A stretch of 64,000 bases of DNA, taken from NCBI GenBank assembly GCA_043803405.1, contig JAZDKB010000020.1, forward strand, positions 32,001-96,000. Direction: 5' to 3'. Origin of the DNA: Spirochaetota bacterium. GTDB taxonomy: Bacteria > Spirochaetota > UBA4802 > JAFGDQ01. How positions within the stretch are numbered: position 1 is the first letter of the stretch; every line of letters starts with the position of its first letter. The translations under genes and the position numbers were made by a program. The notes under the pieces are model-generated. The model did no database searches, was not told where the DNA came from, and worked only from the letters and a program-made list of their open reading frames with translations. Below, one piece after another: positions 25,691 to 64,000 of this stretch.

Positions 25691-25691
25691 T

Positions 25692-26702: not shown

Positions 26703-26706
26703 TTGA

Positions 26707-28727: not shown

Positions 28728-28751
28728 CGTTAAGTAGAAAAAAACATATCG
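28728..28751 (-). promoter_or_regulatory. ModE-type box 1 (upstream of phosphoesterase/ABC unit)
   Basis: CGTTAAGT-N8-ACATATCG, with TGTCAA (TTGACA on -) 8 bp away at 28760-28765. Confidence 0.7.
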
Positions 28752-28808
28752 TAACCAACTGTCAAGTGTTTTATCCGTAAATTTTGTTAAAAAGAGTTGA
28801 CTAACCAT

Positions 28809-28832
28809 CGTTATATTTAAAAAAATATAACG
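28809..28832 (+). promoter_or_regulatory. ModE box 2 (upstream of modD-modA-modA-modB-modC)
   Basis: CGTTATAT-N8-ATATAACG matches the classical ModE consensus CGnTATAT-N8-ATATAnCG. TTGACT at 28797-28802. Confidence 0.85.
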
Positions 28833-28932
28833 GCTTGGATTAATATTTTATTCTCAGGTAAATAAATTTCTAATTTCCTGCTTTACGCTCCCCGGCAAAG
28901 CTTGGAACTAAATGCTATTCAAAGGAGGCATT

Positions 28933-29787: not shown

Positions 29788-29792
29788 TCAAA

Positions 29793-30530: not shown

Positions 30531-30581
30531 TTGGAAGATCAGGATTAATACAAAATATTATATTAAGGAAGAAAAATCTTT

Positions 30582-31334: not shown

Positions 31335-31443
31335 ATTGTTTTCCCTTTTTCAGATTAAAATATTCTTTATATTTTTACGCCTTCATGGCTATACTTCAAC
31401 AAGTAAGTATTCAATAAAAATTTAGTCAAAATGAGTAAAGTTT

Positions 31444-32130: not shown

Positions 32131-32131
32131 T

Positions 32132-37498: not shown

Positions 37499-37534
37499 TG
37501 CTATACTTCTATTTGTAAAATTAATGTTTGCATA

Positions 37535-37572
37535 AGCAAAGAATGCCGGTTACTATTCCGGCATTCTTTGCT
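37535..37572. terminator. Intercistronic hairpin (terminator or mRNA stabiliser)
   Basis: Perfect 15-bp stem AGCAAAGAATGCCGG/CCGGCATTCTTTGCT with an 8-nt loop. Confidence 0.7.
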
Positions 37573-37606
37573 GTTTATCTGGTATTATATTGATTGAATA
37601 AAATAA

Positions 37607-41018: not shown

Positions 41019-41113
41019 TTATTTATTTCAACGCCTTGAAACATAATACCCCGCTGACGCCGAAGGCGGAAGCCGGTGCGAAAGCACCGGGGGCTTGCCC
41101 AGGGGAATTTTAT
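41019..41113 (-). repeat. Palindromic repeat element, copy 2
   Basis: Reverse complement matches 6161-6268 at both ends. Internal hairpins CCGGTGC-TTTC-GCACCGG and CGCC-TTC-GGCG. Confidence 0.75.
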
Positions 41114-41185
41114 TAAATAATATAAAATTTATACTTTTAAAACTAAATTTATTTCTGAACGTGATTTCTGAAAGTCCGTATTGAA

Positions 41186-43106: not shown

Positions 43107-44387
43107 TTAAATCAAAGGCTGATCCTGCCTCCAGTCAAGCGGCAGGACTTTTATCATATCTCCTGCTTTGACATCAGATCCTTCCGGAATAATGGTCAGG
43201 GAATTGGCAGCCGCTATGGAAGCGAGCATGCCCAGTTGATCCCCAAGATTGAGCTTTACCCTGTATGTGCCCTGCATCTTCTCTAAATGTGAATATTTTA
43301 CAAAAGCCATAGCCATTTTCTGGAGAGGCGAGTCCAAAGCAGTTGCTTCGACAACAGGATGAGCCACATCTTTTATGCCGCGCATTTTAAGAAGAGCAGG
43401 CCTTACAAGTGTTTCAAAATTTACGATGCATCCTGCGGGCGGGCCTGCCAGGGAAAAAACCGGTATTGCCGCATCGCCGTTCCCCGCGGCCGATTTGCTG
43501 ATCAATCCGAATGAAACCGGCGCGCCGGGGCCCATCTTAATTCTGGAAAAAATTACTTTTCCGAGCTTTGCAATTATAAGCCTAACCAGGTCATAATCTC
43601 CCTTGGATACTCCTCCGCTCGTGATTATGGCATCCGCCCTCATCCCCTTCCGAAATCTGCAAATCAGGTCAGATTCGTTATCGCGGGCAATTCCCAGAAT
43701 TTTAGGAATGCCTCCATAATGCGAAACAAGGGACGCAAGCGCCGCTGAATTGCCGTTATATGTTTTGCCTGTAGTAAGTAAATTTCCGGGATTAACCAGT
43801 TCGTCGCCTGTGGAAATTATTGCAACCACAGGACGGCTGATTACTTTAACAAATGTTATACCGACAGACGCAAGTGCGGATATCTGTGCCGGACCTATAA
43901 CTGTACCTTTCATCACAATAAGCGTATCTTTCATTACGCCGCTGCCTGCCAGCCTTATGTTTTCGCCGGGGTTAACTTTTGTATAAATTTTTACATGTGC
44001 AGGATTATTGTTATTGGGGCCGTTTTTATCGTCCGGCTCGTCAGTGTCCTCAAACCGGACAACACAGTCTGCTCCATACGGAATCACGGAACCTGTCATG
44101 ATGCGGATAGCGGTTCCAGGTTTCACGATGCAGCGGGTAGGGCGTCCGGCACGGGCAGTAGTAAGGATTTTTAAAATTACCGGATCGCGCATAGAAGCTT
44201 CTTTAATATCAGCCGCTTTTACCGCATAGCCGTCGGGACCTGAAATTGCCCACTGCGGCAGATCAAGGGGAGAATAAATGTCCTCTGCCAGTATTTGGCC
44301 TGCTGATTCAAGGAGAGGTTTTTCGACTTCTTTTAAAATTTTAATATTTTCCAGCATTATTTTTAATGCTTCTTCATAATTTAACAT
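43107..44387 (-). CDS. moeA: MoeA/gephyrin-like molybdopterin metal-insertase homologue (divergent)
   Basis: GQILAED, DGYAV, RIMTG..P.GADCVV.FED, ENIR..G, STGDEL, TSGGVSKGDYD. Confidence 0.85.
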   Translation of the reverse strand: MLNYEEALKIMLENIKILKEVEKPLLESAGQILAEDIYSPLDLPQWAISGPDGYAVKAADIKEASMRDPVILKILTTARAGRPTRCIVKPGTAIRIMTGSVIPYGADCVVRFEDTDEPDDKNGPNNNNPAHVKIYTKVNPGENIRLAGSGVMKDTLIVMKGTVIGPAQISALASVGITFVKVISRPVVAIISTGDELVNPGNLLTTGKTYNGNSAALASLVSHYGGIPKILGIARDNESDLICRFRKGMRADAIITSGGVSKGDYDLVRLIIAKLGKVIFSRIKMGPGAPVSFGLISKSAAGNGDAAIPVFSLAGPPAGCIVNFETLVRPALLKMRGIKDVAHPVVEATALDSPLQKMAMAFVKYSHLEKMQGTYRVKLNLGDQLGMLASIAAANSLTIIPEGSDVKAGDMIKVLPLDWRQDQPLI

Positions 44388-44466: not shown

Positions 44467-44490
44467 CGTTATGTCAAACGAAACATATCG
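44467..44490 (-). promoter_or_regulatory. ModE-type box 6 (upstream of moeA unit)
   Basis: CGTTATGT-N8-ACATATCG. TGTCAA 8 bp away at 44499-44504. Confidence 0.85.
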
Positions 44491-44541: not shown

Positions 44542-45897
44542 TTAAATAAAAAATAAATCATTCTCAGGATTATCTCTCTCGACTCTGTTCATCAAGGCAT
44601 TTAAAATCATTTCCAGAATGCGTATAGCTCCACGGTAACCGACAATCGGCAAATAGGAATGAATATGCCTGTCCATGACGGGAAATCCGATTCTGACAAA
44701 AGGCACATCCTCTGTTCGTGATAAAAATTTTCCATGGGTCTCACCCATAAGCAAATCCACATGATCATTTTTAATCCATTGTTGCAGATCAAATAGGTCA
44801 GCCGGACTTTTAGCCATACCATTTATATTGTATTTTGTAAAAACTTTCTGCATTCTCTCTTCAAAATAAACCCCCGGTGTTCCGCTGACCGCATATTTAG
44901 GAACTAATCCAATCCCAGCCAGAAATTCGGCAAGCGCGATTATCAGATCAGGGTCCCCGAATAGAGCTATTTTCTTACTATAAAAATATGACTGTGCATC
45001 CAAAATAATATCTATAACCTGTTCTCTTTCTTCTTCTAAATCAGGAGCAACATCCCGATGGCTTAACTTTGTCAATGCCATAATAAAACGGTCCGTTGCA
45101 TCAATACCGATTGGCAGGTCCATTAATTCTAAAGGCACTCCGCACTGATTTTGGAGTTGTACGGCAGCCTCCTCAGTTGCATATTTTCCAAAGGCAATTG
45201 TCTTCTTGCAATTTCCCAGATCGATAATATCTGAAACTTTGGTTCCACCGGATGGATATTCGTTAATCTTTTCGACTCCACGCTGGCCGAATATTCCGCA
45301 GGTATCCGGAAACAGGATATGATCTATGCCCATAAGGCAGGTGATTCGTTTAATTTCCTTCATATCGCCCGGGTTAACAAATCCCGGAAGAATACATATC
45401 TTATTATTAAGACACCTTTTTTTAGCTAAATATTTTATGGCGGCAACAAGCATATTGGAGAATCCGGTAATATGAGAACCTGTAAAACTGGGAGTATTTG
45501 CATGAATTATATATTTTCCTTCCGGCATCGGAAAATCATGCAGACAGGCTTTAATATCGTCCCCGATGATTTCACTTAGACAGGTCGTATGTACTGCAAT
45601 AATTTCCGGATCATACAGATTAATAATATTCCGGACTGCTGTCTGCAGGTTGGACTCTCCTCCAAATATGGATGCTGATTCCTTTAATACACTGGTTGTT
45701 ATTTTAAAGGATTGGCGGAAATGTCTTTGCAACAGTGTTCTCTGGAAACGGCTGCAGCCGGATGAGCCATGGCTATGGGGCATACAGCCGTGAATTCCCA
45801 GAGAAGCATATATCGCTCCCAAAGGCTGACATCCGGCTAACGGATTTATCCGCAGTGCCTCTCTGCCAACAGGTTCTTTCGGCGTCAAATCAAGCAT
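44542..45897 (-). CDS. nifK: Nitrogenase beta-subunit homologue (Group II NifK-like)
   Basis: MLDLTPKE...REALRINP..GCQPLGA, HGSSGC, TTCLSEIIGDD and TPSFTGSH keep all three P-cluster Cys plus the Ser. Also GDPD and RIGFPVMDR. Confidence 0.9.
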   Translation of the reverse strand: MLDLTPKEPVGREALRINPLAGCQPLGAIYASLGIHGCMPHSHGSSGCSRFQRTLLQRHFRQSFKITTSVLKESASIFGGESNLQTAVRNIINLYDPEIIAVHTTCLSEIIGDDIKACLHDFPMPEGKYIIHANTPSFTGSHITGFSNMLVAAIKYLAKKRCLNNKICILPGFVNPGDMKEIKRITCLMGIDHILFPDTCGIFGQRGVEKINEYPSGGTKVSDIIDLGNCKKTIAFGKYATEEAAVQLQNQCGVPLELMDLPIGIDATDRFIMALTKLSHRDVAPDLEEEREQVIDIILDAQSYFYSKKIALFGDPDLIIALAEFLAGIGLVPKYAVSGTPGVYFEERMQKVFTKYNINGMAKSPADLFDLQQWIKNDHVDLLMGETHGKFLSRTEDVPFVRIGFPVMDRHIHSYLPIVGYRGAIRILEMILNALMNRVERDNPENDLFFI

Positions 45898-45911
45898 TGC
45901 AAACTCTCCTG

Positions 45912-47447
45912 CTACTCATGAGATTTTATTTTCCATGGCGCCACATTGTTCTGCCAAACCGCCATCTGCATGTTCATTAATAAATCCCGTGCGAAAAGAA
46001 TTGCTCCATGAAATCCGCCATAATCAAAACGATATTGATCCGTTTTAAAAAAGCAGAAGAAAGAATTGGCTGCAACTCCCGTAAAAATTTTTTTGATTCC
46101 AGGGAAATAAATATCGGGCTTAATAATCTTTAGCAAATGTTCGGTTTCTTCATGACTGAGATTGGGAATCAGCATACTATTGTAATCTGTTCTTGAATAA
46201 ACGCCGTTATCGTAGTTAAACAATAGCTCAGGCATTATTTCTGTTTTTATTTCTTCAAATAACCGGGAAGGAAGTGTAATATGGTAATGCTCCAGATCGG
46301 TGTCGTATCGCAATGTTCCTTTTTCTTTTGCGGCGGAAACTCCTGGAACACTTTCTGCCGCAGACAGAAAGCTGATTTCGTTTTGTCCATTAGTACAAAA
46401 TAATTCATTGCCGATAATCACAGGATTAACTTCCAGATCGGTAAGCAGCGCCTGATAATGGCGGGAAACGAATTCATCCTCAAAAATTACCGCTGTTTTA
46501 TTTCTTAATTTATTTTTATAATTATTTAACTCATCCTGAATCTTTGCCAATTCTTCAGAAATTAATGCTTCCGTTCTATTCGCCAGTTCAGGTACATCGA
46601 AAAAATCAGCTATATTTTTTAAAGAATTAATTACATTATCCATACCTATAAAATTGAATTTAAGCCAATTTGTGCCGAACTTTTCATGCAGGACTTTAAC
46701 CATGTCAGCCACGGCCTTATCGCTGCTGAATAAATTTAAATGAGCCTTATGGGCATTTTTCAGATCATCGTAGCTGCCGTCTCCCATTAAGACCGCTACG
46801 ATATCATAACCTATCTTTTTAAATATCCTGGTGATTTCCTTGGCTCTCTGGCCGTTAAAAAACTCTCCTATAATATTTACCGGGTATTTACCCGTATTTT
46901 GTTGTCCGGTACCTATAACATTTTCAATGATACCCTGATTAGCCAGTCTATATCCGGGAATACTTCTGAAACCTTCACAGGAAAAAGAAAGCACTTTAAT
47001 TCCATATTCCATTTCTGCCTGTTGTGCGATGCTCTGTATGTCATCACCTATTAACCCAACAGGACATGTGGAACAAATCGCGATGACTTGCGGATGAAAA
47101 ATATTAACTGCTTCTTTTATAGCCTGCTTCAATTTTTTTTCTCCGCCAAAAATGACATCGCTTTCTTCCATGTTAGTTGAAAAGTCGTAGCTGAAATAAT
47201 CATCTTTTGCATTTTCAGGCATTTGCCGGATGCGATTGCCTCCCCATGAATAGTAAGAGCAGCCTACCGGTCCGTGGGTAATGATAAAAATACCGCTGAT
47301 TGGTGTCAAAACCAATCCTTTGCAGGCCATGTAGGAACAGCCGTGCTTGCATAATATGCCGGGGGTGTCCATTATCAGGCTGCTGATCTCTCTTTCTCCG
47401 GTAATGACTTTATGTTTCAAATCATCACATTCAGTAATCGACTTCAT
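45912..47447 (-). CDS. Nitrogenase alpha-subunit homologue (Group II NifD-derived) lacking FeMoco ligands
   Basis: P-cluster motifs GCSYMAC, HGPVGC and STCPVGLIGDD are present, as are the Group II-type insertion and a W....PWK end. LNLFSSDK stands at the Cys275 site and FFKTDQY at the His442 site. Confidence 0.85.
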   Translation of the reverse strand: MKSITECDDLKHKVITGEREISSLIMDTPGILCKHGCSYMACKGLVLTPISGIFIITHGPVGCSYYSWGGNRIRQMPENAKDDYFSYDFSTNMEESDVIFGGEKKLKQAIKEAVNIFHPQVIAICSTCPVGLIGDDIQSIAQQAEMEYGIKVLSFSCEGFRSIPGYRLANQGIIENVIGTGQQNTGKYPVNIIGEFFNGQRAKEITRIFKKIGYDIVAVLMGDGSYDDLKNAHKAHLNLFSSDKAVADMVKVLHEKFGTNWLKFNFIGMDNVINSLKNIADFFDVPELANRTEALISEELAKIQDELNNYKNKLRNKTAVIFEDEFVSRHYQALLTDLEVNPVIIGNELFCTNGQNEISFLSAAESVPGVSAAKEKGTLRYDTDLEHYHITLPSRLFEEIKTEIMPELLFNYDNGVYSRTDYNSMLIPNLSHEETEHLLKIIKPDIYFPGIKKIFTGVAANSFFCFFKTDQYRFDYGGFHGAILFARDLLMNMQMAVWQNNVAPWKIKSHE

Positions 47448-47451
47448 TTAT

Positions 47452-48309
<858 letters not shown>

Positions 48310-49095
48310 TCAATTACGTAAGGCTATACAGCTTTTTAAATCATAACCATCGTTGTCTGTTATCTTTGTTATTCTCACATTAATCCCATAAGTTTCTCTC
48401 ATTTTTATCTCTGTGATAATGTTATCTGCCATGCCGATTTCGAATCCATTTCTGTTCATTAAACCTATTTTGGGAGAACATAAAAAAGCGTGATTGGGAA
48501 AATGTGAGGTCATTATAATACCGATCCCTTCTTCCGACAGTTTTTTAATTTGCAGCAGAACCCTTACCTGATTGCCATAATCCAGATTGGAAGTGGGCTC
48601 ATCAAGAACAAGAATCCTCGGCTTTTGCGTAAGGGCGCGGGCTATGAGAACCATTTGTCTCTCACCGCCGCTTATTTCGGTATAAATCCGGTCTCTCAAA
48701 AATGAAACTCCCAGCTTATCAAGCGATTCTTCGGCAAGCTCAACGTCGTGCCGGGAAGGAGACGAGAAAAGCCCAAGGTGCGCGATCCTCCCCATTAGAA
48801 CAACATCCAGAACAGTATAAGGGAAAGGCGGAGTATGCGCCTGCGGCACATAACCGAGCGCTCTGGCTAAGAGAGGTTTGGACCATTTTTTAATATTTTG
48901 TCCGTCAATGGAAATCTCTCCGCCTATTAATGCAATAAAACCAAGAACGGATTTAAACAACGTTGTTTTCCCTATCCCATTCGGACCAAGCAGGCAAAGG
49001 AACTCACCTGCTTCGATTTTAAAGGAAATATTCCGGAGAATTATCCTTTTTGCATACCCCAGAAACGCATCTTTTACTTCCAGTATCATGTCCAT
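48310..49095 (-). CDS. ABC ATPase (FecE/BtuD-like)
   Basis: GPNGIGKT, ISGGERQ, LDEPTSNLD, TSH. Confidence 0.9.
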   Translation of the reverse strand: MDMILEVKDAFLGYAKRIILRNISFKIEAGEFLCLLGPNGIGKTTLFKSVLGFIALIGGEISIDGQNIKKWSKPLLARALGYVPQAHTPPFPYTVLDVVLMGRIAHLGLFSSPSRHDVELAEESLDKLGVSFLRDRIYTEISGGERQMVLIARALTQKPRILVLDEPTSNLDYGNQVRVLLQIKKLSEEGIGIIMTSHFPNHAFLCSPKIGLMNRNGFEIGMADNIITEIKMRETYGINVRITKITDNDGYDLKSCIALRN

Positions 49096-50243
49096 GAGTT
49101 CCTTTTTTTATATAATAAATAAATGAAGAAAGGCGCACCGATAATTGCGGTCAAAATACTAAGCGGTATCTCCAGCGAAAAAATTGTCCGCGATAAATCA
49201 TCGATCAGAAGTAAATATGATCCGCCCAGCATAATTGACGCTGGCAGCATAAACCTGAAATCCGGCCCGACCAGTATCCGGGCAAGGTGAGGGATTATAA
49301 GTCCTACCCAGCCGATCATACCACCGGCCGCTACAGATGATGCTGTCAGCAGTGTAGCGCAGATAATGTAAATAAAACGTATCTTTTGGGTATTTATTCC
49401 TAAAGACTGTGCTTCCTCCTCGCCGAAAGACAGGGCATTTAGCCTGTACCTTAAAAAAAACATGGGGATAATACCGATTACACTCGGAATAAGAATTAAT
49501 GGAATATTTTTTGATTTTATTGAAGAAAGACCGCCCATCAGCCAGAATGTTATTTCAGGCAATTTGTTATTGGGATCGGCAGTAAATTTAATCAGGGAAA
49601 TAAATGCCGCAAACAGGCTGGTCACAACCATACCTGTTAACACTACAACCAGAACGGCATTATTTCTCCTGCCAATAAGACTGCTGATCAGGTAAGTCAT
49701 CATAACAGCAATAATTCCGAACACAAATGCTACCAGCTGGATACTAAGCGAATCGAGCGAATAGAGAATTGCCAGGGCAGCGCCAAAGCCTGCGCCCGCA
49801 GAAGCTCCTAAAATATCCGGCGAGACCATGGGATTACGGAAGAGTCCCTGAAAAGCGGCTCCTGATGCCGAAAGAACGGAACCTATAATAAGCGCGACAA
49901 TTATTCTCGGTATGCGTATATTGAATAATACGGTTTCCATCGTATCCGGAAATACTGCCGGAAGTCCGTATAACTTACCGAAAAAAATTGTTAAAAGCTG
50001 CTTCAAGGGAACTGCATAACGGCCTACTGTAAAGGACCAGAGAAATATAACTATGAGCAGAACGAACAAAATTACAAGCACAGGTCCGCTCTTTCTAGTC
50101 CTTATCTTAGGGATTGCATTTACTGCCACAGTATCGCTTTGCATTAATCTGTCTTTCGCAGTATTGGAAAACTGCATTAATAGGTCTCCATTCAGCTTTT
50201 TCAATTTATCAATCCAATAGCTTTTTTCAAATCTTACCCCCAT
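49086..50243 (-). CDS. FecCD/BtuC-family ABC permease (start uncertain)
   Basis: RIPRI, GAAFQGLFRNPMVSPDILG, GEEEAQSLG, IGWVGLIIPH, EIPLSILTAIIGAPFF. Confidence 0.9.
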   Translation of the reverse strand: MGVRFEKSYWIDKLKKLNGDLLMQFSNTAKDRLMQSDTVAVNAIPKIRTRKSGPVLVILFVLLIVIFLWSFTVGRYAVPLKQLLTIFFGKLYGLPAVFPDTMETVLFNIRIPRIIVALIIGSVLSASGAAFQGLFRNPMVSPDILGASAGAGFGAALAILYSLDSLSIQLVAFVFGIIAVMMTYLISSLIGRRNNAVLVVVLTGMVVTSLFAAFISLIKFTADPNNKLPEITFWLMGGLSSIKSKNIPLILIPSVIGIIPMFFLRYRLNALSFGEEEAQSLGINTQKIRFIYIICATLLTASSVAAGGMIGWVGLIIPHLARILVGPDFRFMLPASIMLGGSYLLLIDDLSRTIFSLEIPLSILTAIIGAPFFIYLLYKKRNSWT

Positions 50244-50333
50244 TTATCGTGGCAATTGAGTTAAACAGAATAAACAAAATACTAACCGCTGATAACAATG
50301 ATAACAAACCGACGTGCTTGCGCTTAAGCCACT

Positions 50334-51467
50334 CTAATGAGTAACTGAATACCTAAGCAGTTCGGCAACCTGCTTGTCTGTCAGTTTTTGATTCAGAAAG
50401 AGAGAAAAGAAATTTTTTATTTCCTGATTCAGGTCAATTTTTACATAATCCGGATAAACCACTTTAGCCAGCCATTGAATTCCCAGAACCCTCATAATGT
50501 TAGGCGGACGATCGAACCATCCGAAAGGAATTGTTGGAGTAATGTATACTTTCCCTTTTTTTATAGCATTAATCTTACCCCAGGATGGATCTTTCAATAT
50601 GCTGTCATAATTTTGCGTTCCTCCTGTCGATGAGCTGACCAGAATTACATCGGGATTCCATAAAAGTACCTGTTCCAAGGAAACAGGCGTCATGCCCTGT
50701 CCGCTCTTATTCATCACATTAGCTACATTTTTGCCTCTGACGAATCTTAATACATCGACATGATGATTGGCCTCCGGTTCGGTAGCAAGCCCGGATGTTC
50801 CCTCCGCATAATACACATTAACTAATTTTTCCTCCGGAATTTTTTCAACCATCGAAGAAATTGCCGACATTTTCTGTTCAGAATATAATGCCAGTTTTTC
50901 AGCCCTTTCTTTGACTCCTAAAATATCCCCCATAATTCTGTAAGCCTGCGGAGTAGATGTAAAAGTGGAATCTAAAATTACAACAGGCTTTTTGGTTTGA
51001 GCTGTTATTCCGTCGGAAGTCTCTATTGTTTTAATTTTATTTTCAGGATCAAGGTCCGTCATAAAAATAATAACGTCCAGAGGCTGTTTGGCTATTTCCT
51101 CAAGATTGGCAGTGCACTTCTCACCCATCCATCCGCCGAGAACCGGAAGTTTTTTAAGACGGTCATTCAAGTATTTTGAATGGGAGGTGGCGCCAACCCT
51201 AGCTGCCATTTTTTCCGGTGCCAGAGAATAAAGCATCGCCTCAGCAGTTGGCACGGCGCAATAAACAGCATTAACCTGTGCCGGGATTTTTACCTTTCTG
51301 CCTGCCATGTCCGTTATTATCCTGGTAGCTGAGGATGCGGTTATCGTATCCTGGCCAGTACTGTCCGTCTTATTGCTGCAATTATACTGCAGCAATATCG
51401 TTAACCAGAAGCAAACTATAATAGCTGCTCCTTTGGTGACATATTTTCTCATGCTAATTTTTTTCAT
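50334..51467 (-). CDS. Metal-chelate ABC substrate-binding lipoprotein
   Basis: Signal ending LQYNC, ITDMAGRKVKIP, VSLEQVLLWNPDVI, PFGWFDRPP. Confidence 0.88.
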   Translation of the reverse strand: MKKISMRKYVTKGAAIIVCFWLTILLQYNCSNKTDSTGQDTITASSATRIITDMAGRKVKIPAQVNAVYCAVPTAEAMLYSLAPEKMAARVGATSHSKYLNDRLKKLPVLGGWMGEKCTANLEEIAKQPLDVIIFMTDLDPENKIKTIETSDGITAQTKKPVVILDSTFTSTPQAYRIMGDILGVKERAEKLALYSEQKMSAISSMVEKIPEEKLVNVYYAEGTSGLATEPEANHHVDVLRFVRGKNVANVMNKSGQGMTPVSLEQVLLWNPDVILVSSSTGGTQNYDSILKDPSWGKINAIKKGKVYITPTIPFGWFDRPPNIMRVLGIQWLAKVVYPDYVKIDLNQEIKNFFSLFLNQKLTDKQVAELLRYSVTH

Positions 51468-51542
51468 TTTCCATTCCTCTATGCTTTTTCACAACTGACT
51501 GCCGTTTTTAAAACTGATAGCATTAATTCCTTTGAGCATGTG

Positions 51543-51579
51543 TACAAAGAGCAATGCCGGCCCGGCATCACTCTTTGTA
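51543..51579. terminator. Intercistronic hairpin after TBDR2
   Basis: TACAAAGAG..ATGCCGG / CCGGCAT..CTCTTTGTA imperfect stem with no U-tract, so probably a stabiliser or partial terminator. Confidence 0.55.
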
Positions 51580-51592
51580 TTTAAATCTGCGT

Positions 51593-53935
51593 TTAAATAT
51601 CCATTTGTAACCCTGCAAAGAATGTCCTCGGAGCACCGACATTGTATGTCAGAGACTGGTAATCCGTTGAGCTGTTCGATGCGTTTGAGCTTGCCACATA
51701 CTTTTCGTTAAGCACATTTGTTACCGAAAACTTCAAAGCAATATTCTGGCTGTCAGAAGTTTTTATTTTCCAGTTCATATCCAGATCAACCACGAAAAAC
51801 TGATCCATGCTGTAATGGTTTTCAACATCTGCATAACGTTTGCCGATATAACGAGCAGTAGGACCGACCGTCAGCCCACCTACCTGCCAGTTAACGCTTA
51901 AATTACTGACAAAGTGAGGCACTTCAGGCAACTCGTTGCCTTTAGAATCGATTGTAGTATTTCCCGCAGCTTTAAGATCTTCGGTGAATTCATATTGATT
52001 ATAAGCGAAGGCTAATTTTGCATTTAATCCGCGGATAAATGTATACCCAGCTCCGATTTCCATACCATATCCCTGCGCTGTGGCGTTAGTCTGCTGATAA
52101 CTCATGTTAAGATCAGGATCGTAGAAACTTCCTCCAACGTTTCTCATATAGGAATAATATAAAGTAGATTCAATAGTGCAATCACCGAATGCCATATTAG
52201 TCCCAAGGTCGAAATTATCGGAAACTTCCGGCTTTCTTTTATTGGAATATAAATCTTGCATTTTTTCCTGTGCGGCTTGTGGTGTATATCCCTTAGTTGT
52301 TGTTAGTGTATTATATAATGAATCGAATTGATTTGGAAGTCCGCCCGGATTATCATAATTACGGCCATATATCAGTTTAAAGCTTAGCTTATCAAAAACC
52401 TGGTATGTTGTTCCTGCATTTGGCAGCCAAATATCATATTTCGAGCCATTTAAATGATATTTCTTTTCAGTAGACCGATCAATGGCATCAGAATAGCTTA
52501 TATCCCAGTCAGAAGTATTCGTATTAGATGTCTTATAACTATCATAATCCGATTCTTTAACGTGATGGTATCTAAGACCGGCATTAACTGTTAAAGGGCC
52601 AAAGCTCCTGTCTCCAGCAATATATGGGCTATTGTACTGGGCAGTACTTGCCTTTATCAGCGTAGACCAGCTGTTAAATTCCAATCTGCCTGTAGTAGAA
52701 TTAAAAGTTCGTTTTTTTTGAGCAACATTTGGCCCTGGTGGCAAACTCTCCGCATACCAGTAGCCTGCTTTTATTTGTCCGTCGGTTATCTGCTGTTGGT
52801 ACTCAAGTATTCCTCCGTAACAATAATGATCAGCAAGATTTTCCGTGACATAGTAGCTGCTGCCGGATTTTGAGCCTCCGTAACTGAATCCTTTCTCATT
52901 TAAGTAATACGGTTTTAATGTCAGGCTCGATTCGCCGAGAAAAGGCAAAGGTGTTTTTATTTTGCCGATAAATGCACTGGTTGAAAAACGCTGCCGGTTA
53001 TAATCATAATAATTATAATCATGTGAAGAGTCCCCGGTTAATGTGTTATAATAGTCGTTCTTATAATTATTTGAAAGATGCTTTGATTCATTATAACTCA
53101 GAGGTTTATAGAGATGTTGCACATCGTCATTATAGAAGCTGTTAAGTTCCCACTCTATTGGCTGTCCGGCAGTGCTCGCAATGCCACAGGCAAAATTTTT
53201 ACGTCCATCCGGAGAGTTGCCTTCGCCTTTCCACTTATCAGCATCCGTAAATGATCCGGAAACGAATACCCTGGCAACATTTCCCACATTCCCGGAATCT
53301 ACTCTTGCGTAACTGCGGCTAAAATCATTAGTACCGAATATCTGTTTACCAGTCGCATGTAATTCATCTGACGGTTTTTTTAAATACATCTCAAACACGC
53401 CAAAATTATTGCCTGATCCGAAACCGCTGTCCGCAGGTACCGGTCCTTTTATTACGGTAATTGAATCGATATTTTCAAGATCGATTATAGTGCTTAATCC
53501 GGTACCCGGGCCGCGTTGTTTAATGGGAAGGCCTTCAATACCCTCACCGTCATTACTAAAACCTTTGCCGCGGATACGATGTGAAACATTCAATCCTATT
53601 GCGTCCAATGTTCTCACGTCTACGCCAGGTACAGTAGATATCGCTTTGTATGGACTTATCTGTGCCGCACCGCCCTGAACATCGATTGTGGATTTATCGA
53701 CTGTCTTTTTTGTTGCCGACTCTTTCTGAGACTTCACTACCACTTCCGGGAGCGTCATTGCTTCATTACTTTTGTTTTTCTCGGTATCAGCTTTTTTTTC
53801 TGCATCTGCCGCTGCCTCTTTTTTATTGATATCTTTACCCGCATCCTGAGCATTGACTTCTTTGAAAAGTATTGTGCCGGATAGTAAATATAAAATTATT
53901 ATTATTCTGTTGATTATGCTGTATTTGTTTTTCAT
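51593..53935 (-). CDS. TonB-dependent receptor 2
   Basis: Signal peptide, TonB-box-like TLPEVVV, plug motifs IRG, EGLPI and KGP, barrel strands, NVLNEKY..GAPRTFFAG. Confidence 0.9.
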   Translation of the reverse strand: MKNKYSIINRIIIILYLLSGTILFKEVNAQDAGKDINKKEAAADAEKKADTEKNKSNEAMTLPEVVVKSQKESATKKTVDKSTIDVQGGAAQISPYKAISTVPGVDVRTLDAIGLNVSHRIRGKGFSNDGEGIEGLPIKQRGPGTGLSTIIDLENIDSITVIKGPVPADSGFGSGNNFGVFEMYLKKPSDELHATGKQIFGTNDFSRSYARVDSGNVGNVARVFVSGSFTDADKWKGEGNSPDGRKNFACGIASTAGQPIEWELNSFYNDDVQHLYKPLSYNESKHLSNNYKNDYYNTLTGDSSHDYNYYDYNRQRFSTSAFIGKIKTPLPFLGESSLTLKPYYLNEKGFSYGGSKSGSSYYVTENLADHYCYGGILEYQQQITDGQIKAGYWYAESLPPGPNVAQKKRTFNSTTGRLEFNSWSTLIKASTAQYNSPYIAGDRSFGPLTVNAGLRYHHVKESDYDSYKTSNTNTSDWDISYSDAIDRSTEKKYHLNGSKYDIWLPNAGTTYQVFDKLSFKLIYGRNYDNPGGLPNQFDSLYNTLTTTKGYTPQAAQEKMQDLYSNKRKPEVSDNFDLGTNMAFGDCTIESTLYYSYMRNVGGSFYDPDLNMSYQQTNATAQGYGMEIGAGYTFIRGLNAKLAFAYNQYEFTEDLKAAGNTTIDSKGNELPEVPHFVSNLSVNWQVGGLTVGPTARYIGKRYADVENHYSMDQFFVVDLDMNWKIKTSDSQNIALKFSVTNVLNEKYVASSNASNSSTDYQSLTYNVGAPRTFFAGLQMDI

Positions 53936-54120
53936 GGTGTCTTTTCCTAAAGATGTAAGAAATTTATTTAATATTCTTTTGACATTATCTCGGATGATGG
54001 AGACTTTCCGGGATTCTTTACTAACGAAAATGAATTTCGTAGTTATTATTACATTGTGCTTTTATCTTCGCTGATACCCATAGGCAGCCTCCTTTATACA
54101 TGTATTACTAAAAAAATAGA

Positions 54121-54144
54121 CGCTATGTCTAAAAAAACATAACG
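54121..54144 (-). promoter_or_regulatory. ModE-type box 7 (upstream of TBDR2-ABC-nifHDK-like operon)
   Basis: CGCTATGT-N8-ACATAACG. TGTCAA 9 bp away at 54154-54159. Confidence 0.85.
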
Positions 54145-54229
54145 TCTATTTCCTGTCAAGAGTTTTTAAAAAATTTCTTAACTCTGTTAATCCAAAATCA
54201 AATATAAATTTTTTATTTAAAAAAGCATT

Positions 54230-55279
54230 CTAATCGACATTTTTAATATTTTTTAAATCGCCTATATTGCGGAAATATTTTACCATATCAAAGTCAATTC
54301 GTTTGCCTGATCGTATTCTGTCTCTTAAATCTGCCATGTGCGCGTCAATCAACTGGAGTTCTCTCAAATTTTTACGTTCCAGGCTGTTTGTCTCAACGAC
54401 TGAATCTATCCCTCCGTTTTTAATGACTATTCTTCTGTCTCCCATGAGCGCCAAAATCGGATCATGTGTCGACATGAGGACGATCTTTTCTTCTCTTACA
54501 AGGAGGTCGAGGGCTTTCCTCCGATCAACGCCGGCGTTTTCTATTTCATCAATGACTACGATCGGCAGCGGGCTTAGTAGCGCCGTATCGGCAACCATGA
54601 GCGCCCTCGACTGGCCGCCCGAGAGCTGCGTTACCGGAGTACTCATCCCGAAAGGTTCACCCGCAAGTTCATTGGCGCATGTAACAATTTTTTGCACTGT
54701 TGTTCCTATTTCGCTTATCATTCTGCTTTCTGCATGCATGGTGATAAATTCCGCGACTGTGAGGTCAACCACAAAGTTCATGTTTTGCGAAAGCTGAGCG
54801 ACTAGCTTATTCTCAATCGAAAAACGCTTCTCGCTATCCGGAATACTGTCATTAATGAGTATCTGCCTGCCAGTGGGTGTATCCCTCTGAGCCAGACATT
54901 CTATATCGGCAAGGAGCCTGCTTTTACCCGATCCTGTAGGCCCGACAACGCAGACTATTTCACCTGGCCTGAACGCGAGAGTTATATCCTCTTTCTCGCC
55001 GTTTTTGTTGCGGCCTCCTATTATAGTGAGAGAGTGCACCTGCCTCTGCGGAGCGTCCTTCAGATCACTCATTTTCCGGATGAATACCGCGAAATGCTGC
55101 AGCATCTGCTCGCGGTCAATGCCGCAATCTTCGATGAACACGTCTGTTAATCCTGAAATAAATTCAGCAACAGACAGATGTCCTGCGATTTCCTTTAATC
55201 CAAATGAGAAAAAAAATTCCTTCGCGTATGGATGAGACTGCATCAGTGTATCTATTGGAGTAGATAATAATTCGTTCAT
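54230..55279 (-). CDS. Soluble ABC-type ATPase with extra N-terminal domain
   Basis: GPTGSGKS, LSGGQSRALM, IDEIEN, STHD. No permease in its unit. Confidence 0.8.
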   Translation of the reverse strand: MNELLSTPIDTLMQSHPYAKEFFFSFGLKEIAGHLSVAEFISGLTDVFIEDCGIDREQMLQHFAVFIRKMSDLKDAPQRQVHSLTIIGGRNKNGEKEDITLAFRPGEIVCVVGPTGSGKSRLLADIECLAQRDTPTGRQILINDSIPDSEKRFSIENKLVAQLSQNMNFVVDLTVAEFITMHAESRMISEIGTTVQKIVTCANELAGEPFGMSTPVTQLSGGQSRALMVADTALLSPLPIVVIDEIENAGVDRRKALDLLVREEKIVLMSTHDPILALMGDRRIVIKNGGIDSVVETNSLERKNLRELQLIDAHMADLRDRIRSGKRIDFDMVKYFRNIGDLKNIKNVD

Positions 55280-55283
55280 GTCA

Positions 55284-55979
55284 TTACTCCGATTGCCAAT
55301 TCATCTTTTTAACATATCCCCGCTGGTACTCCTTTCCTATCTTTGTTTCGCCGAGACAATAAGAGCACATCGCTGCCGGCATGGAAAACCGGAGGCGCCG
55401 TCCTTCGAGCTTATCTAAAGCAGGGGCAGTCTCGAGCATAACTCCCAGATCGTAAGCTCCCTGTCCCGTTATGCCATTTATGTTCATTATTGCAGCGCGG
55501 GGATTTGCCTGTTTTACTCTGAAAGTAAATATCTCGCGTTCGGCCTGTGAAACAATATCACCCTTTGTAATGACGACAATATCTGCCAGCTTTAACATCG
55601 GCCCAATTTTTTTTGGCGTATTAATTCCCGAAAGATTATCAATAACACATATCGCTAGAGCATCCTTTATGTGAGGGGCGCAGCGGTTGCACAGGCCGGC
55701 GCTTTCTATGATTAGAACGTCTATATCCTTTTGCACACCCCACTGCAGGCATTCCTCTATATTACTTATAAAAAAATGATCGGGACATAGAGTGCCGGAC
55801 AGTCCGACCTTTACCGGGATTTGGTACTTTTCATAAGCCTGATCGTCATAAGTAATTGTACAGTCGAACTTGATTACGCCTGTCTTAAGCCCCTTTGTTT
55901 TTAAATAGCCTGCTGCCTTTATAATCACAGATGTCTTTCCCGATGATGGCGGCCCTGCAACAGTGACAAGCCGTATCAT
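55284..55979 (-). CDS. HypB/UreG/CobW-family GTPase
   Basis: GPPSSGKT, LCPDH, IESAGLCNRC, ITKGD, C-terminal CSYC. Confidence 0.85.
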   Translation of the reverse strand: MIRLVTVAGPPSSGKTSVIIKAAGYLKTKGLKTGVIKFDCTITYDDQAYEKYQIPVKVGLSGTLCPDHFFISNIEECLQWGVQKDIDVLIIESAGLCNRCAPHIKDALAICVIDNLSGINTPKKIGPMLKLADIVVITKGDIVSQAEREIFTFRVKQANPRAAIMNINGITGQGAYDLGVMLETAPALDKLEGRRLRFSMPAAMCSYCLGETKIGKEYQRGYVKKMNWQSE

Positions 55980-57022
55980 ACCCTGCCTCCTTTACCGGAT
56001 TTCCGCCATTCTGAAATGAACACGCTGTGCGCGTAATCCCTTAATTCTGCCGGGTCATGAAATTTAATATAATCCCATCCCAACCATTTAAAGTTCGCAC
56101 CTTCCGGTAGGTTGTTATCCACGTAAGGATTGAGAGAAGGAAAGCATGACAACGCGCATTGTCTTCCCAGTTTAACACCTGTGACATAGTCAATAATGGC
56201 TGCCATTTCTTTTACTTTGGACTCTTTTACGAGAAGGTAAAGCGGACTTGAACAAGCACCGTCTTCCGGCCAGACCATAGAAACTGTTTCGGTCCTGGGA
56301 CAGCAGGAGGCGAAAAACCAGGGTAATATATAGACTGCTGCCCCGCAGGGATTAGCTGTCCCTGCTATTCTGGCCATTTCGGCAGCGTGATATGACTCTT
56401 TTACATTGGTGGCAAGCCGGGTAAGGCCGTTCTCACCGTATTCCTTGTATAAATAAAGCAAAGGTACATCTGCTACTTCATCTTCGTTGCCGCCACAGAT
56501 AATTATATTATCCCGGAATCGAGGCTCAAGGAGGTCGCACCACTGCTTCGGCAATGGGATATTGCCTAGTCTTTGTTTATCAACGAGCAAGAGGTAAGGC
56601 ATCACACCGTATACTGTATAGTATCCATCGGGATCCCGGAATCCAGCTTTCTCAAAAGGCTCGTTTAGACAGTCTTTCCATACACTGGTGAAGCAGCCCT
56701 TGGCAACAAATCTATCGACGAATTTCTTCCTGAAAAAGTCGCCAAATCCCATCGATGCTATAACATCCGGCAAATCATTAATATCCGTACTTTTCCATAT
56801 ATCATCATATATCCCCTCGCTCCCGCAACCCATTGGAACGAAGCTTTTTAGCCGGTTCCCGGATTCTATCTTATACGCACCCAGCGCACTGTCGAGGCCT
56901 TCTTTAAAAGTAGGCTTAACAGCACAGGGCGCATAGGCGAGAAAATTCAAATGATCGACGAATTCCTGCCCGGCTTGTTTTTCGTTTGATTCAAACTTTA
57001 TACCGATATCCAATTTATTCAT
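55976..57022 (-). CDS. SBP-fold protein without signal peptide, paralogue A (Cys-bearing)
   Basis: APCAVK, PMGCG, LPD..SMGF, P..W.DLL, WPEDGA..SP, FKWLGWDYI. Confidence 0.7.
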   Translation of the reverse strand: MNKLDIGIKFESNEKQAGQEFVDHLNFLAYAPCAVKPTFKEGLDSALGAYKIESGNRLKSFVPMGCGSEGIYDDIWKSTDINDLPDVIASMGFGDFFRKKFVDRFVAKGCFTSVWKDCLNEPFEKAGFRDPDGYYTVYGVMPYLLLVDKQRLGNIPLPKQWCDLLEPRFRDNIIICGGNEDEVADVPLLYLYKEYGENGLTRLATNVKESYHAAEMARIAGTANPCGAAVYILPWFFASCCPRTETVSMVWPEDGACSSPLYLLVKESKVKEMAAIIDYVTGVKLGRQCALSCFPSLNPYVDNNLPEGANFKWLGWDYIKFHDPAELRDYAHSVFISEWRKSGKGGRV

Positions 57023-58112
57023 TGGGATTCCTCCTTATCCTGGATATTTTTCCGAAATCGCACCCGATATTTTTATACTCTTCGCCATAATGTTTAGTAT
57101 CCTTCCATTTAAACATAAATAATGCGTGTGAATACTCTCTTAATTCTGCAGTATCATGTGATTGAATATAATCCCAGCCCAACCACTTAAATGTGGCGCC
57201 CTCCGGCAGCGAATTATCAACGCCGGGATGTAGTACAGGCAAACAAAATTGAGCACTCTTTGCGCCCAATTCAAAACTTGTTATATATTGAACAATTGCT
57301 TTCATCTCCTTTGCCTTCGACTCCTTCACTAAAATATAAAGAGGACTTGTAAAAGCTCCGTCTTCAGGCCAAACTACGGAGACGCTTTTGGTTTTTACAC
57401 AGGAGTTGGCAAAAAACCATGAGAGAATATAGACTGCAGCACCTTCCGTGCTGTCGGAACCGGCCTCCCTGGCAATCCGGGCTGCCGGCCATATTGCCTT
57501 GATGTTCCTTGCAAGCCGTGTAATGCCTTCCTCTCCCATTTCTTTGTAAATGTAGAGCAAAGGTACATTTGCCGCTCCATTACCTGACTGGCTGATGATT
57601 ACTTTGTTGCGAAACTGAGGCGTCAGCAGATCCTTCCATTGCCTCGGCATCTGGAGATCGCCAAGCCTTTTCCTGTCAACGAGCATTACGAAAGGTACGA
57701 CGGAGTATGCGGTGTACCATCCGCGGGGATCAATGAAACCTGCCTTTTCAAAAACACTGCTTACTGGTCTGTCCCACCCGCTCTTAAAACATCCTTTCTT
57801 TACAAATTTTTCAACGAACTCTTTTCTGACAAAATCTCCAAATCCCATTGCTGCGACAACATCAGGAAAACAATCAATATTAGACGTCTTCCAGATATCC
57901 TCATACTTATCGTTACCATGGTTAGGCCATTCCATAGGGCCATATATTTTCAGGTCATGACCGGTCTCGTTGCGGTATATCCGCGCCACATTATCAAAAC
58001 CTTCTTTGAAAGTGCGTTTGAAAATGCCGGGTGCGTAAATAAGAAAATTCAGATGCTCCCTTTCCTGTTCTTTTTCTGCCCTATTAAATGGAGAATGCTT
58101 TATACTGTTCAT
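57015..58112 (-). CDS. SBP-fold protein without signal peptide, paralogue B
   Basis: Collinear with 55976-57022 (HLNFL, DIWK, MGFGDF, WPEDGA, FKWLGWDYI). APGIFK and PMEWP replace the Cys motifs. Confidence 0.7.
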   Translation of the reverse strand: MNSIKHSPFNRAEKEQEREHLNFLIYAPGIFKRTFKEGFDNVARIYRNETGHDLKIYGPMEWPNHGNDKYEDIWKTSNIDCFPDVVAAMGFGDFVRKEFVEKFVKKGCFKSGWDRPVSSVFEKAGFIDPRGWYTAYSVVPFVMLVDRKRLGDLQMPRQWKDLLTPQFRNKVIISQSGNGAANVPLLYIYKEMGEEGITRLARNIKAIWPAARIAREAGSDSTEGAAVYILSWFFANSCVKTKSVSVVWPEDGAFTSPLYILVKESKAKEMKAIVQYITSFELGAKSAQFCLPVLHPGVDNSLPEGATFKWLGWDYIQSHDTAELREYSHALFMFKWKDTKHYGEEYKNIGCDFGKISRIRRNPNE

Positions 58113-58186
58113 TACTCATTGCCTTTGATGATCATTGTCACTCATAACGGATATTCCGAATTAACCTTCATTTTGTTTTAACCTAA

Positions 58187-59236
58187 TCACTGTATGTTTT
58201 GTGTAAGTATTTCGCTAATCTGCATATCTGTTAGCTGATATCCGAAAAACTTGTGATAAAAGTACTTCATCTCATCCGCGATGTTGAGACCTTCAAAACG
58301 ATCAGGATAGAGAAGCTTGGCCAGCCAGAGTATAGATATGGCTTGTTCCGGAGTAAAATTTGTCCATGGATGAGCTCCAACAGGCACAACATACACTTTT
58401 TGGTTCTTAACTGCCTTCAGTTGTGAGTAGCACTTCTCATGATAGATATGCTTAACCTCGGCAGGTCCACCAACCAGAAGAATATCCGGGTCCCATGTGA
58501 TGAGACGTTCCAAAGAGAATGCCGAATACTCAGGAATCATGCCTGTGGCTCCATATCTGCCACCCGCCAGCATAATAAGATGACTTGCAGTTGATGCCAT
58601 TGGCAATGCCATGGGATTTATTCGAATGTAAAGAACACGTGGCCGTTTCTCCTCAGATATTGCTGCGACCTGAGCGGACACTCTCAACAGGACATTTTGA
58701 TAGTATTCCTCGAATTCCTTAGCTTTGTCACGCTGGTTAAAAATTTCTCCCATAAGTGCTATTGTTTTTCTAACGCATTCAGTATCTCTCCAGTTCAGAG
58801 AAATAACAGTGAAACCTCTTTTCTCCAACATGCGGGCAGTCGATTCACTGTCTACAAAGATCAAATCATGCGGCAGGGTTGCGAGCACCTCCAGATTAGG
58901 CGTCCATACAGATGCAGCGCTGGCGGAAACCACTGGTTGATTAACCAGCGAAGGAGCAAATACTGTCTGGTATTTCCAGCGGTTATCGTGCATCGTCATC
59001 GTCAACGGAAGCCCATTCTTAATAGTCGCTCCTTTGCCTATGGCAAAAATAAATGCGTTTACGGCAGGGGTTCCCCCTGCCGTTATTACTCTTCGCACCT
59101 CCCGCGGGATCAACACTCTTCTTCCAGCCATATCAATTACAAACCTGCCCGAATCTTCAGAAGAACGAGCCGGTGCCGGTGAAAGACAAAATAATAAACA
59201 AAATATTAAAAAGAATGTTGCATCTCTATATCTCAC
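58187..59236 (-). CDS. Metal-chelate ABC substrate-binding protein
   Basis: Signal peptide, IDMAGRRV.IP, SLERLITWDPDIL, LKAVKNQKVYVVP. GTG start. Confidence 0.85.
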   Translation of the reverse strand: MRYRDATFFLIFCLLFCLSPAPARSSEDSGRFVIDMAGRRVLIPREVRRVITAGGTPAVNAFIFAIGKGATIKNGLPLTMTMHDNRWKYQTVFAPSLVNQPVVSASAASVWTPNLEVLATLPHDLIFVDSESTARMLEKRGFTVISLNWRDTECVRKTIALMGEIFNQRDKAKEFEEYYQNVLLRVSAQVAAISEEKRPRVLYIRINPMALPMASTASHLIMLAGGRYGATGMIPEYSAFSLERLITWDPDILLVGGPAEVKHIYHEKCYSQLKAVKNQKVYVVPVGAHPWTNFTPEQAISILWLAKLLYPDRFEGLNIADEMKYFYHKFFGYQLTDMQISEILTQNIQ

Positions 59237-59244
59237 AAGAACTC

Positions 59245-61629: not shown

Positions 61630-61653
61630 CTATATGTCAATAAAAACATAACG
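61630..61653 (-). promoter_or_regulatory. ModE-type box 8 (upstream of TBDR3 operon)
   Basis: CTATATGT-N8-ACATAACG. TGTCAA 8 bp away at 61662-61667. Confidence 0.8.
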
Positions 61654-63786: not shown

Positions 63787-63810
63787 CGATATGTCCAAAC
63801 AAACATAACG
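63787..63810 (-). promoter_or_regulatory. ModE-type box 9 (between DUF364 and modE-like gene)
   Basis: CGATATGT-N8-ACATAACG. TGTCAA 8 bp away at 63819-63824. Confidence 0.85.
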
Positions 63811-63899: not shown

Positions 63900-64000
63900 A
63901 TGAACATGAACGATCTGAAAATTGATATAGGATATAAAATCTGGATTAAGAACAAGGGAAATGCCTTTGGGAAAGGGCCTTATACGCTTTTAAAAAATAT
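63900..64000 (+). CDS. modE: ModE-family winged-helix regulator, 5' fragment (runs off window, not in ORF track)
   Basis: Manual translation MNMNDLKIDIGYKIWIKNKGNAFGKGPYTLLKN fits the KIW....FGxG...LL start of ModE N-terminal domains. TTGACA at 63870-63875. Confidence 0.7.
   Translation, partial: MNMNDLKIDIGYKIWIKNKGNAFGKGPYTLLKN

Follow-up and report, generated by a model that had tools for sequence, protein, structure and literature searches.

What does a set of nitrogenase genes do at the end of an operon for nutrient uptake? The question is raised by a 64,000-nucleotide stretch of DNA from a Spirochaetota bacterium (assembly GCA_043803405.1, contig JAZDKB010000020.1, positions 32,001 to 96,000), called the window here as a whole. 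In the window, genes for a NifH-type iron (Fe) protein and for NifD-like (D-like) and NifK-like (K-like) subunits follow those for a TonB-dependent receptor (TBDR2) and an ATP-binding cassette (ABC) importer. Sequence comparisons suggest that this set branched from a true Group II (clostridial-type) molybdenum (Mo) nitrogenase and lost the site for the iron-molybdenum cofactor (FeMoco), and thus is a repurposed nitrogenase. It is highly likely that its product is a reductase that is coupled to the importer and does not fix N2. Which substrate the importer delivers can be answered with less assurance, and here the evidence points towards Mo or tungsten (W).

The seven genes from TBDR2 to the K-like gene are all intact open reading frames (ORFs) on the minus strand (Table 1). 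According to the coordinates the gaps are 27 bp between the ATPase gene and nifH, 4 bp between nifH and the D-like gene, and 14 bp between the D-like and K-like genes, and the co-oriented run that an earlier note on this DNA had described is borne out by these coordinates and by the Pfam and NCBIfam families of the products. The receptor and binding-protein genes are 125 bp apart, the binding-protein and permease genes 90 bp, and the permease and ATPase genes overlap by 10 bp.

NifH reaches 434.3 bits on TIGR01287, above the cut-off of 394.35, and its P-loop and [4Fe-4S] cysteine motifs align with those of solved NifH (393 bits). The D-like protein scores below the cut-offs of both the nifD model TIGR01282 (367.3 against 653.55 bits, the canonical NifD of the same genome having 664.1) and the nifE model TIGR01283 (272.9 against 505.1 bits). 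The K-like protein also remains below the cut-off of the nifK model TIGR01286 (355.4 against 427.3 bits), but this score alone is not diagnostic because the canonical NifK of the genome is under the cut-off as well (411 bits). Residues 20-510 of the D-like protein align with Clostridium pasteurianum NifD (369 bits), the alpha insertion of about 50 residues included, and residues 1-448 of the K-like protein align with C. pasteurianum NifK (528.2 bits), with the P-cluster cysteines matching up. Among solved structures, H, D, and K are all closest to the clostridial nitrogenase, and the contacts between D and K and between H and DK would follow from homology.

The decisive changes are found in the D-like protein (ligands are numbered as Cys275, His442, Cys62, Cys88, and Cys154 of Azotobacter vinelandii). 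The protein belongs to a clade of 13 sequence clusters, itself included, and the position of Cys275 is occupied by Ser in the window protein and in all 13 clade rows, while all 13 NifD, VnfD, and NifE rows have Cys. At the position of His442 the window protein has Lys and the clade has Lys, Asn, or Gln (13 of 13 rows), against His in 10 of 10 NifD and VnfD rows. A deletion of three residues (Ser-Gln-Ser) removes Gln191 in all 18 rows of the clade and its near relatives. In addition, His195 is changed to Tyr, Gly356-Gly357 to Asp-Glu, and Val70 to Leu. Both the window protein and the clade retain the P-cluster residues Cys62, Cys88, and Cys154, although one clade row is truncated at the first of these positions. 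The claim that the D-like protein lacks both FeMoco ligands and keeps the P-cluster cysteines is thus correct. New motifs have become invariant throughout the clade, namely Glu-Asp-Glu-Phe and Tyr-Arg-Phe-Asp-Tyr-Gly-Gly-Phe, and the insertion holds a conserved Asp-Leu-Glu-His-Tyr-His stretch. Cys465 and Cys33 are nearly invariant in the clade, and canonical NifD proteins have no cysteine at the position of Cys465. Besides these two, the residues specific to the clade include Tyr166, Ser242, Asp243, Lys244, Glu323-Asp324-Glu325, and His389. In total, well over 100 columns are invariant in the alignment of the 13 sequences. Judged from these alignments, the module combines an intact Fe protein and intact P-cluster ligands with a pocket that has been rebuilt from residues conserved across the clade and is incompatible with FeMoco.

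Among 5.8 billion clustered proteins, the 12 further clusters of the clade share 50-77% identity with the D-like protein, and then follow ordinary clostridial NifD proteins with at most 43%. The D-like protein also serves as the representative of its own cluster in the library built at 50% identity. Two trees were computed as quick searches, one with 63 rows under LG+G4 and one with 33 rows under the site-heterogeneous model LG+C20+F+G4 with posterior mean site frequencies (PMSF). In both, the clade and five related representatives form a group with a support of 100 inside Group II NifD, so that a NifD tree, which had been proposed as a check, nests the clade within true nitrogenases. The group is sister to clostridial NifD, the canonical NifD of the same genome branches further out, and the D-like protein falls with NifD and away from NifE in both trees. 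The clade also carries the Group II insertion. The near group (P0121, P0122, P0124, P0126, and P0129) shares the Gln191 deletion in all members and the Ser at the Cys275 position in four of the five. Desulfosporosinus is the label that the sources give to the P0122 cluster, and its gene was found neither in the three genomes of named relatives nor in 401 sampled genomes of the phylum of genome G122 (see below). Four other NifD-like representatives (P0176, P0199, P0215, and P0220) have only 216-315 bits on the nifD model and form a long branch beside the Group I NifD representative in a quick tree; they might represent another offshoot of a true nitrogenase.

Within the order of the window genome, the D-like gene is present in a single genome (G000) of 122, the other 17 matches being canonical NifD with 32-36% identity, and a sample of the phylum contains it in 1 of 401 genomes. 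In the class of a metagenome-assembled genome titled Syntrophomonadaceae (G122/L031), it is encoded by 5 of 125 genomes with 64-72% identity. A DNA pattern specific for the clade led to four metagenome contigs, all of which contain the module. These five genomes and four contigs are the yield of the search, suggested in the earlier note, for NifD homologues without Cys275 and His442 beside importer genes. A single-protein search for related loci gave 81 pattern matches, none of which was confirmed. The search with the clade alignment used generic NifD motifs, and among the matches listed (80 loci) there is no clade member; these loci encode NifD at the canonical level with 36-47% identity, one of them partial.

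The order binding protein, permease, ATPase, H, D, and K is found in 9 of the 10 loci if the window is counted, and the tenth locus (L119) is cut by a contig end just before the ATPase gene. All six proteins of the module are 60-89% identical to those of the window in nine of the ten loci; the binding protein is 60-74% identical to its counterparts. Some loci are close kin (L119/L120, L122/L125, and L124/L127), so that the independent versions number about six or seven. In half of the ten loci, the ATPase gene and nifH have a class I methyltransferase gene between them. The contig L126 has the full arrangement of the window, with a TonB receptor, binding protein, permease, ATPase, H, D, K, and MoeA; its first gene, that of the receptor, encodes a protein 64% identical to TBDR2, and its MoeA is 66% identical and has the same K-to-MoeA junction. 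A genome of the same genus as the window genome (G004) has tonB-exbD-exbB beside moeA and its operator, with 70-77% DNA identity, but does not contain the module. Therefore, the module is an addition in the window lineage on a native chromosomal background. The claimed linkage to an importer is conserved in nine other loci and, as far as these comparisons tell, the six genes travel together between phyla.

The ratio of nonsynonymous to synonymous substitutions (dN/dS), determined for six locus pairs per gene, ranges from 0.07 to 0.18 for D, from 0.06 to 0.13 for K, and from 0.08 to 0.15 for H, and the set includes pairs far from saturation (dS 0.27-0.59). The module genes are working genes under purifying selection. 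A neutral ratio on the D gene combined with the lack of a similar gene arrangement in other genomes had been named as an outcome that would speak against a repurposed enzyme; both are contradicted by these values and by the conserved loci.

The window genome contains three nitrogenase-type clusters, on contigs C3 and C15 and in the window. Contig C3 encodes a canonical nifH-I1-I2-D-K-E-N-B set including a PII pair, together with amt and a homocitrate-synthase-like gene. That the window has no nifENB had been used as an argument against N2 fixation. Among the window ORFs scanned with Pfam and NCBIfam there are indeed no nifE/N/B, nifI, or anfG/vnfG genes, and the only genes on this contig found in a whole-genome PF00148 scan are the D-like and K-like genes. 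However, the argument is weak given the canonical nifENB on contig C3, which came to light in the recommended check for a complete nifHDKENB set elsewhere in the genome. The other hosts are more informative. Three of them (G151, G184, and G240) possess no NifB and no PF00148 genes beyond the two of the module; in G151 the module is situated on a contig of 3.2 Mb, which is about the size of the whole genome. NifB above the cut-off is present in one of the five Syntrophomonadia-class hosts (G237). Because three hosts lack NifB and any other nitrogenase-family genes, the enzyme should be independent of a NifB-derived cluster. This independence together with the loss of the FeMoco ligands makes N2 fixation by the module very unlikely. 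In G237, about 16 kb separate the module (locus L122, C16:55294-58003) from a canonical nifD-K-E-N-B cluster on the same contig (C16:74410-80947). Of the extra PF00148 pairs of this genome, two were considered as members of the near group and rejected as Mar-like. The cluster on contig C15 of the window genome (C15:17666-29373, L016) is Mar-like, too, with metN-metI-metQ, a NifB-like radical SAM gene, and genes for NifH and for D-like and K-like subunits. On its flanks lie double-cubane reductase genes and an activase gene, after which come a cysteine desulfurase/selenocysteine-lyase-like gene and YedF.

For the importer, the comparison was made with solved structures and not with a family tree. 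The best solved relative of the permease is HI1471 (MolB) with 235 bits, followed by haem (172.4 bits), hydroxamate (157 bits), and B12 (125 bits) permeases, and that of the ATPase is HI1470 (MolC) with 148.5 bits. MolBC-A imports molybdate and tungstate, as stated in the available text of PMC4031551 and bioRxiv 10.64898/2026.10.15.759412. Genes connected with Mo/W cofactors adjoin the module in 6 of the 10 loci: those for MoeA and modDAABC in the window; for MoeA and DUF364 in L126; for XdhC, FmdE, and DUF364 directly after K and with gaps of at most 16 bp in L121; for FmdE, DUF364, and a TrmO-FmdE fusion in L124/L127; and for modABC-like proteins, a PBP_like/HTH_17 regulator, and DUF364 in L118. 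DUF364 has been tied by genome context to the transport of iron, tungstate, vanadium, and molybdate (PMC2954201, text available in part).

The second line of evidence for a Mo setting is the operators. The palindrome CGWTATGT-N8-ACATAWCG occurs at nine sites in the window against 0.6 matches expected, a number reached in none of 100 shuffles. With at most one mismatch, the 3.98-Mb genome has eight sites, all within 28728-63810 of the window, and no site for a reversed control pattern. The operators precede modDAABC (two), the operon of a 441-aa protein and the receptor TBDR3, the gene of a 410-aa protein (two), moeA, TBDR2, TBDR1, and a DUF364 gene, and in L126 two operator-like sites precede the receptor gene. 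According to the accessible part of PMC12327845, the motif RTTATGT-N8-RCATAAY binds ModE of Methanosarcina acetivorans in electrophoretic mobility shift assays and is also found before putative Mo, W, and Fe ABC transporters. The half-site and spacing of the window operator are the same. The site before TBDR2, which had been called a ModE-type box, fits this validated motif.

Taken together, a connection of the module with Mo or W is likely. With slightly less assurance, we favour an ATP-driven reductase that would be the cytoplasmic partner of a MolBC-A-type importer and would act on an imported Mo/W-bearing substrate, and the module would probably serve metal scavenging and not nitrogen fixation. 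Scarcity of Mo (or W) would cause the ModE-like repressor to leave the operators, and the receptor and the importer would bring in a Mo/W-bearing species. NifH, with ATP, would then drive low-potential electrons via the P-cluster to the remodelled pocket, where the imported species would be reduced or released into a form usable by cofactor-handling proteins such as MoeA here and XdhC, FmdE, and DUF364 in other loci. Whether Mo or W itself is reductively processed is a tentative proposition. The complete scavenging path, from the TonB receptor via the MolBC-type importer and NifH'D'K' to MoeA, XdhC, or FmdE, with imported Mo(VI) or W(VI), maybe as a thiomolybdate or chelate, being converted, is likewise a possibility about which we are doubtful. 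The proposal of the earlier note, a repurposed and non-N2-fixing reductase working with the importer, stands on the loss of the ligands, the P-cluster, the linkage in nine loci, the dN/dS values, and the ModE motif, and not on the absence of nifENB from the window. As for the chemistry that the note offered by way of example, Mo/W could be freed from a metallophore by reduction or a metallocofactor could be salvaged, but the nearest characterised relative of the importer carries free molybdate or tungstate and not a metallophore.

Several observations weigh against a Mo/W substrate. The binding protein is only distantly related to MolA (HI_1472), which with 64.2 bits ranks third behind two structures without assigned ligand (4PAG, 160.9 bits, and 4OVK, 79.8 bits), and the basic residues K221 and R264 of MolA seem to align with Asn and Ser, as far as an assumed numbering offset and a low identity allow. 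The presence of a TonB receptor would fit a larger or chelated cargo better than a free oxyanion. The rebuilt pocket has an invariant acidic Glu-Asp-Glu run, which would be odd for binding an anion. Four of the ten loci (L119, L120, L122, and L125, which are close kin) have no Mo gene nearby, and three of them (L120, L122, and L125) have instead an AraC-type regulator or an ORF that corresponds to one in size and location. The regulator, which is encoded at the edge of the island, scores 74.2 bits on TIGR00637, below the cut-off of 98.5, and matches HTH_1 only; no Mop domain was found on this protein of 123 residues, which is the only ModE-family match of the genome. Finally, moeA has its own operator and TTGACA, so that its adjacency may reflect the organisation of the island and not a shared pathway.

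Part of these points would suit a reductase that is coupled to the importer for another cargo, for example a ferric chelate, a tetrapyrrole, or a corrinoid, the Mo setting in the window being secondary. Type II FecCD importers mostly carry chelates (NCBIfam matches to BtuC, FecD, and FhuB), tetrapyrroles are substrates of other nitrogenase-like enzymes (PMC13474568, section 2.4), and a TonB receptor has been recruited; L120, L122, and L125 combine the module with AraC-type regulators and methyltransferases, and the apparent absence of the basic MolA residues points in the same direction. However, the permease is closer to MolB than to the haem, hydroxamate, and B12 permeases, ModE-type operators are present at two independent loci (the window and L126), and Mo/W-cofactor genes are neighbours in the majority of the loci. 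A cargo other than Mo or W is thus rather unlikely, but it is the alternative that deserves most attention.

It could also be imagined that D'K' has no substrate pocket at all and is a P-cluster-only, ATP-gated electron donor for a nearby methyltransferase, XdhC, DUF364, or HGD-D protein. The bulkier residues in place of the small ones in the FeMoco space (Gly-Gly to Asp-Glu and Val70 to Leu) would be expected for such a donor, and the partner genes differ among the loci. But no single partner is present at every locus, and the strong conservation of the pocket residues and of the insertion loop in the clade suggests a working site, which renders such a donor improbable. A Mo-independent back-up nitrogenase that is switched on like anf/vnf when Mo is lacking has even less in its favour. 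ModE represses alternative nitrogenases in other organisms (PMC12327845, in the part available), and NfaHDK has been reported to fix N2 without the canonical residues (as given in the accessible text of PMC13474568). Against this stand the loss of both cofactor ligands and the rebuilding of the pocket, the three hosts without NifB or NifEN, and a constant partner that is an importer and not a set of nitrogen-regulation genes, so that a back-up nitrogenase appears very improbable. The last alternative, a decaying and functionless nifHDK duplicate, might be read from the far stronger divergence of D from the canonical protein of the genome (36% identity) compared to H (64%) and K (47%), but it can practically be dismissed in view of intact reading frames, the low dN/dS, more than 100 invariant columns among 13 sequences, and a synteny that is conserved across phyla.

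Table 1. Features of the window around the module and basis of their assignment
Feature	Position	Strand	Basis
TBDR2, TonB-dependent outer-membrane receptor, 780 aa	51593-53935	-	Pfam plug and beta-barrel domains
Peripla_BP_2 substrate-binding protein, probable lipoprotein, 377 aa	50334-51467	-	Pfam/NCBIfam
FecCD-family type II ABC permease, MolB-like, 385 aa	49086-50243	-	Pfam/NCBIfam
ABC ATPase, MolC-like, 261 aa	48310-49095	-	Pfam/NCBIfam
NifH-type Fe protein, 276 aa	47452-48282	-	TIGR01287
NifD-derived D-like subunit, predicted to lack FeMoco ligands, PF00148, 511 aa	45912-47447	-	Pfam/NCBIfam
NifK-like subunit with P-cluster cysteines, PF00148, 451 aa	44542-45897	-	Pfam/NCBIfam
MoeA, molybdopterin molybdotransferase family, 426 aa, next gene downstream of K-like	43107-44387	-	Pfam/NCBIfam
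ModE-type operator 'box 7', CGTTATGT-N8-ACATAGCG, before TBDR2	54121-54144	.	motif match
TTGACA, just upstream of box 7	54154-54159
ModE-type operator before moeA, with own TTGACA	44467-44490	.	motif match
Two operators (28728-28751 and 28809-28832), then modD, modA, modA, modB, modC	28728-33184	+
Neighbouring operon (TBDR1)	54230-61599	-	Pfam/NCBIfam
Operator before the TBDR1 operon	61630-61653		motif match
Operator beside the ModE-like regulator gene	63787-63810		motif match
Start of ModE N-terminal-like helix-turn-helix regulator, 123 aa, running past the window to C20:96271	63900-64000	+

Within the operon, the assignment of the binding protein as a lipoprotein is compatible with a hydrophobic start followed by Cys30, but the lipobox is not canonical. 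The gap between the receptor and binding-protein genes contains a G+C-rich palindromic stem-loop (51554-51568), which may act as an internal attenuator or serve for RNA processing. A search for riboswitches and other regulatory RNAs gave no Rfam family at its gathering score within the window, and the sole match in an Rfam scan of the loci L118, L120, and L121 was a chance-level microRNA. No RNA dataset was listed as containing this DNA, and two DNA runs of a single study contain a small share (0.08). The neighbouring operon, which lacks a permease gene, starts with TBDR1 and continues with genes for a Peripla_BP_2 protein, a tandem of SBP_bac_6 proteins, a CobW/HypB-like GTPase, and an ABC ATPase-like protein. 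The two SBP_bac_6 proteins have no NCBIfam match, and the one that was searched in the PDB has no match there. The same island contains a third FecCD-type importer set (24641-27495) and, behind an operator, a third TonB receptor together with a 441-aa protein with a prealbumin-like domain (35093-38932). In the gap between exbB and a methyltransferase gene, an element of 85-95 bp (41030-41115) has dozens of copies with 81-92% identity in two genomes of the same genus and looks like a dispersed short repeat of the miniature inverted-repeat transposable element (MITE) or repetitive extragenic palindromic (REP) type. The region 6000-24000 has a very low G+C content (0.26-0.34 compared to about 0.40-0.47 elsewhere) and is probably acquired DNA; a pair of IS66-family transposase genes (3619-5623) is located beside it.

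If the proposed function holds, this would be the first nitrogenase-derived enzyme dedicated to the acquisition of a trace metal, in anoxic, sulfidic habitats, and nitrogenase-like enzymes would arise also within working nitrogenases and not only as old sister lineages. If Mo or W is processed, the module would bear on how anaerobes obtain molybdenum when it is scarce or bound by sulfide, a problem stated in the available text of PMC11484787. For enzymologists, it would offer a natural NifDK with only the P-cluster and a new pocket. Surveys that use nifH or nifD as markers may score such genes as diazotrophy, because the NifH described here passes the NifH equivalog cut-off and because the sources label members of the clade as 'nitrogenase molybdenum-iron protein alpha chain'. 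Full-text searches of the literature, supplements aside, revealed neither an account of the clade nor a nitrogenase homologue connected with the uptake of molybdate, and the searched text of the review on nitrogenase-like enzymes (PMC13474568) does not mention molybdate.

This review, from 2026, describes nitrogenase-like enzymes as old lineages whose sequences do not group with those of true nitrogenases (section 2.4) and, in its accessible text, ties them to tetrapyrrole synthesis or sulfur scavenging. The clade appears to break both patterns, because it branches within Group II NifD and is constantly accompanied by a MolBC-type importer. In the loss of ligands it resembles the nitrogen-fixation-like (NFL) systems, but its phylogenetic position inside Group II is unlike that of Groups IV-VI treated in section 2.4. 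With the Group II NifHDK of C. pasteurianum (PDB 1MIO and 4WES) the module shares the end-to-end alignment of D including the insertion, the P-cluster ligands, and an intact NifH. It differs in the missing equivalents of Cys275, His442, and Gln191, in the exchanges at His195 and Gly356-Gly357, in its presence in genomes without NifB and NifEN, and in being always joined to an ABC importer. MarBHDK and IsrBHDK, which serve sulfur scavenging, are also reductases co-located or co-regulated with ABC importer genes and expressed on nutrient shortage, according to the part of PMC13474568 available. However, they belong to the Group IV lineage and have a NifB homologue, of which the module has none, and the MarD of the window genome itself is 33% identical to the D-like protein over 291 residues and is an outgroup in the trees.

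MolBC-A of Haemophilus influenzae (HI1470/71/72) provides the best solved relatives of the permease and the ATPase and, with MolA, the best relative of the binding protein with a known ligand. It has neither a TonB receptor nor an attached reductase, and the binding protein of the module is distant from MolA and seems to lack K221 and R264. The ModE regulon of M. acetivorans, which includes anf/vnf, has the same half-site and spacing, and also covers putative Mo, W, and 'Fe' ABC transporters (PMC12327845, as far as accessible). In contrast, the regulator of the window consists of a helix-turn-helix domain only, and the nitrogenase homologue under its putative control would not be able to bind FeMoco-type cofactors in the known way. 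A last comparison is offered by NifEN, a NifDK-like scaffold without a catalytic role that works together with NifH. NifE keeps the Cys equivalent to Cys275, whereas the D-like protein has Ser. During the maturation of FeMoco, NifH mobilises molybdate.

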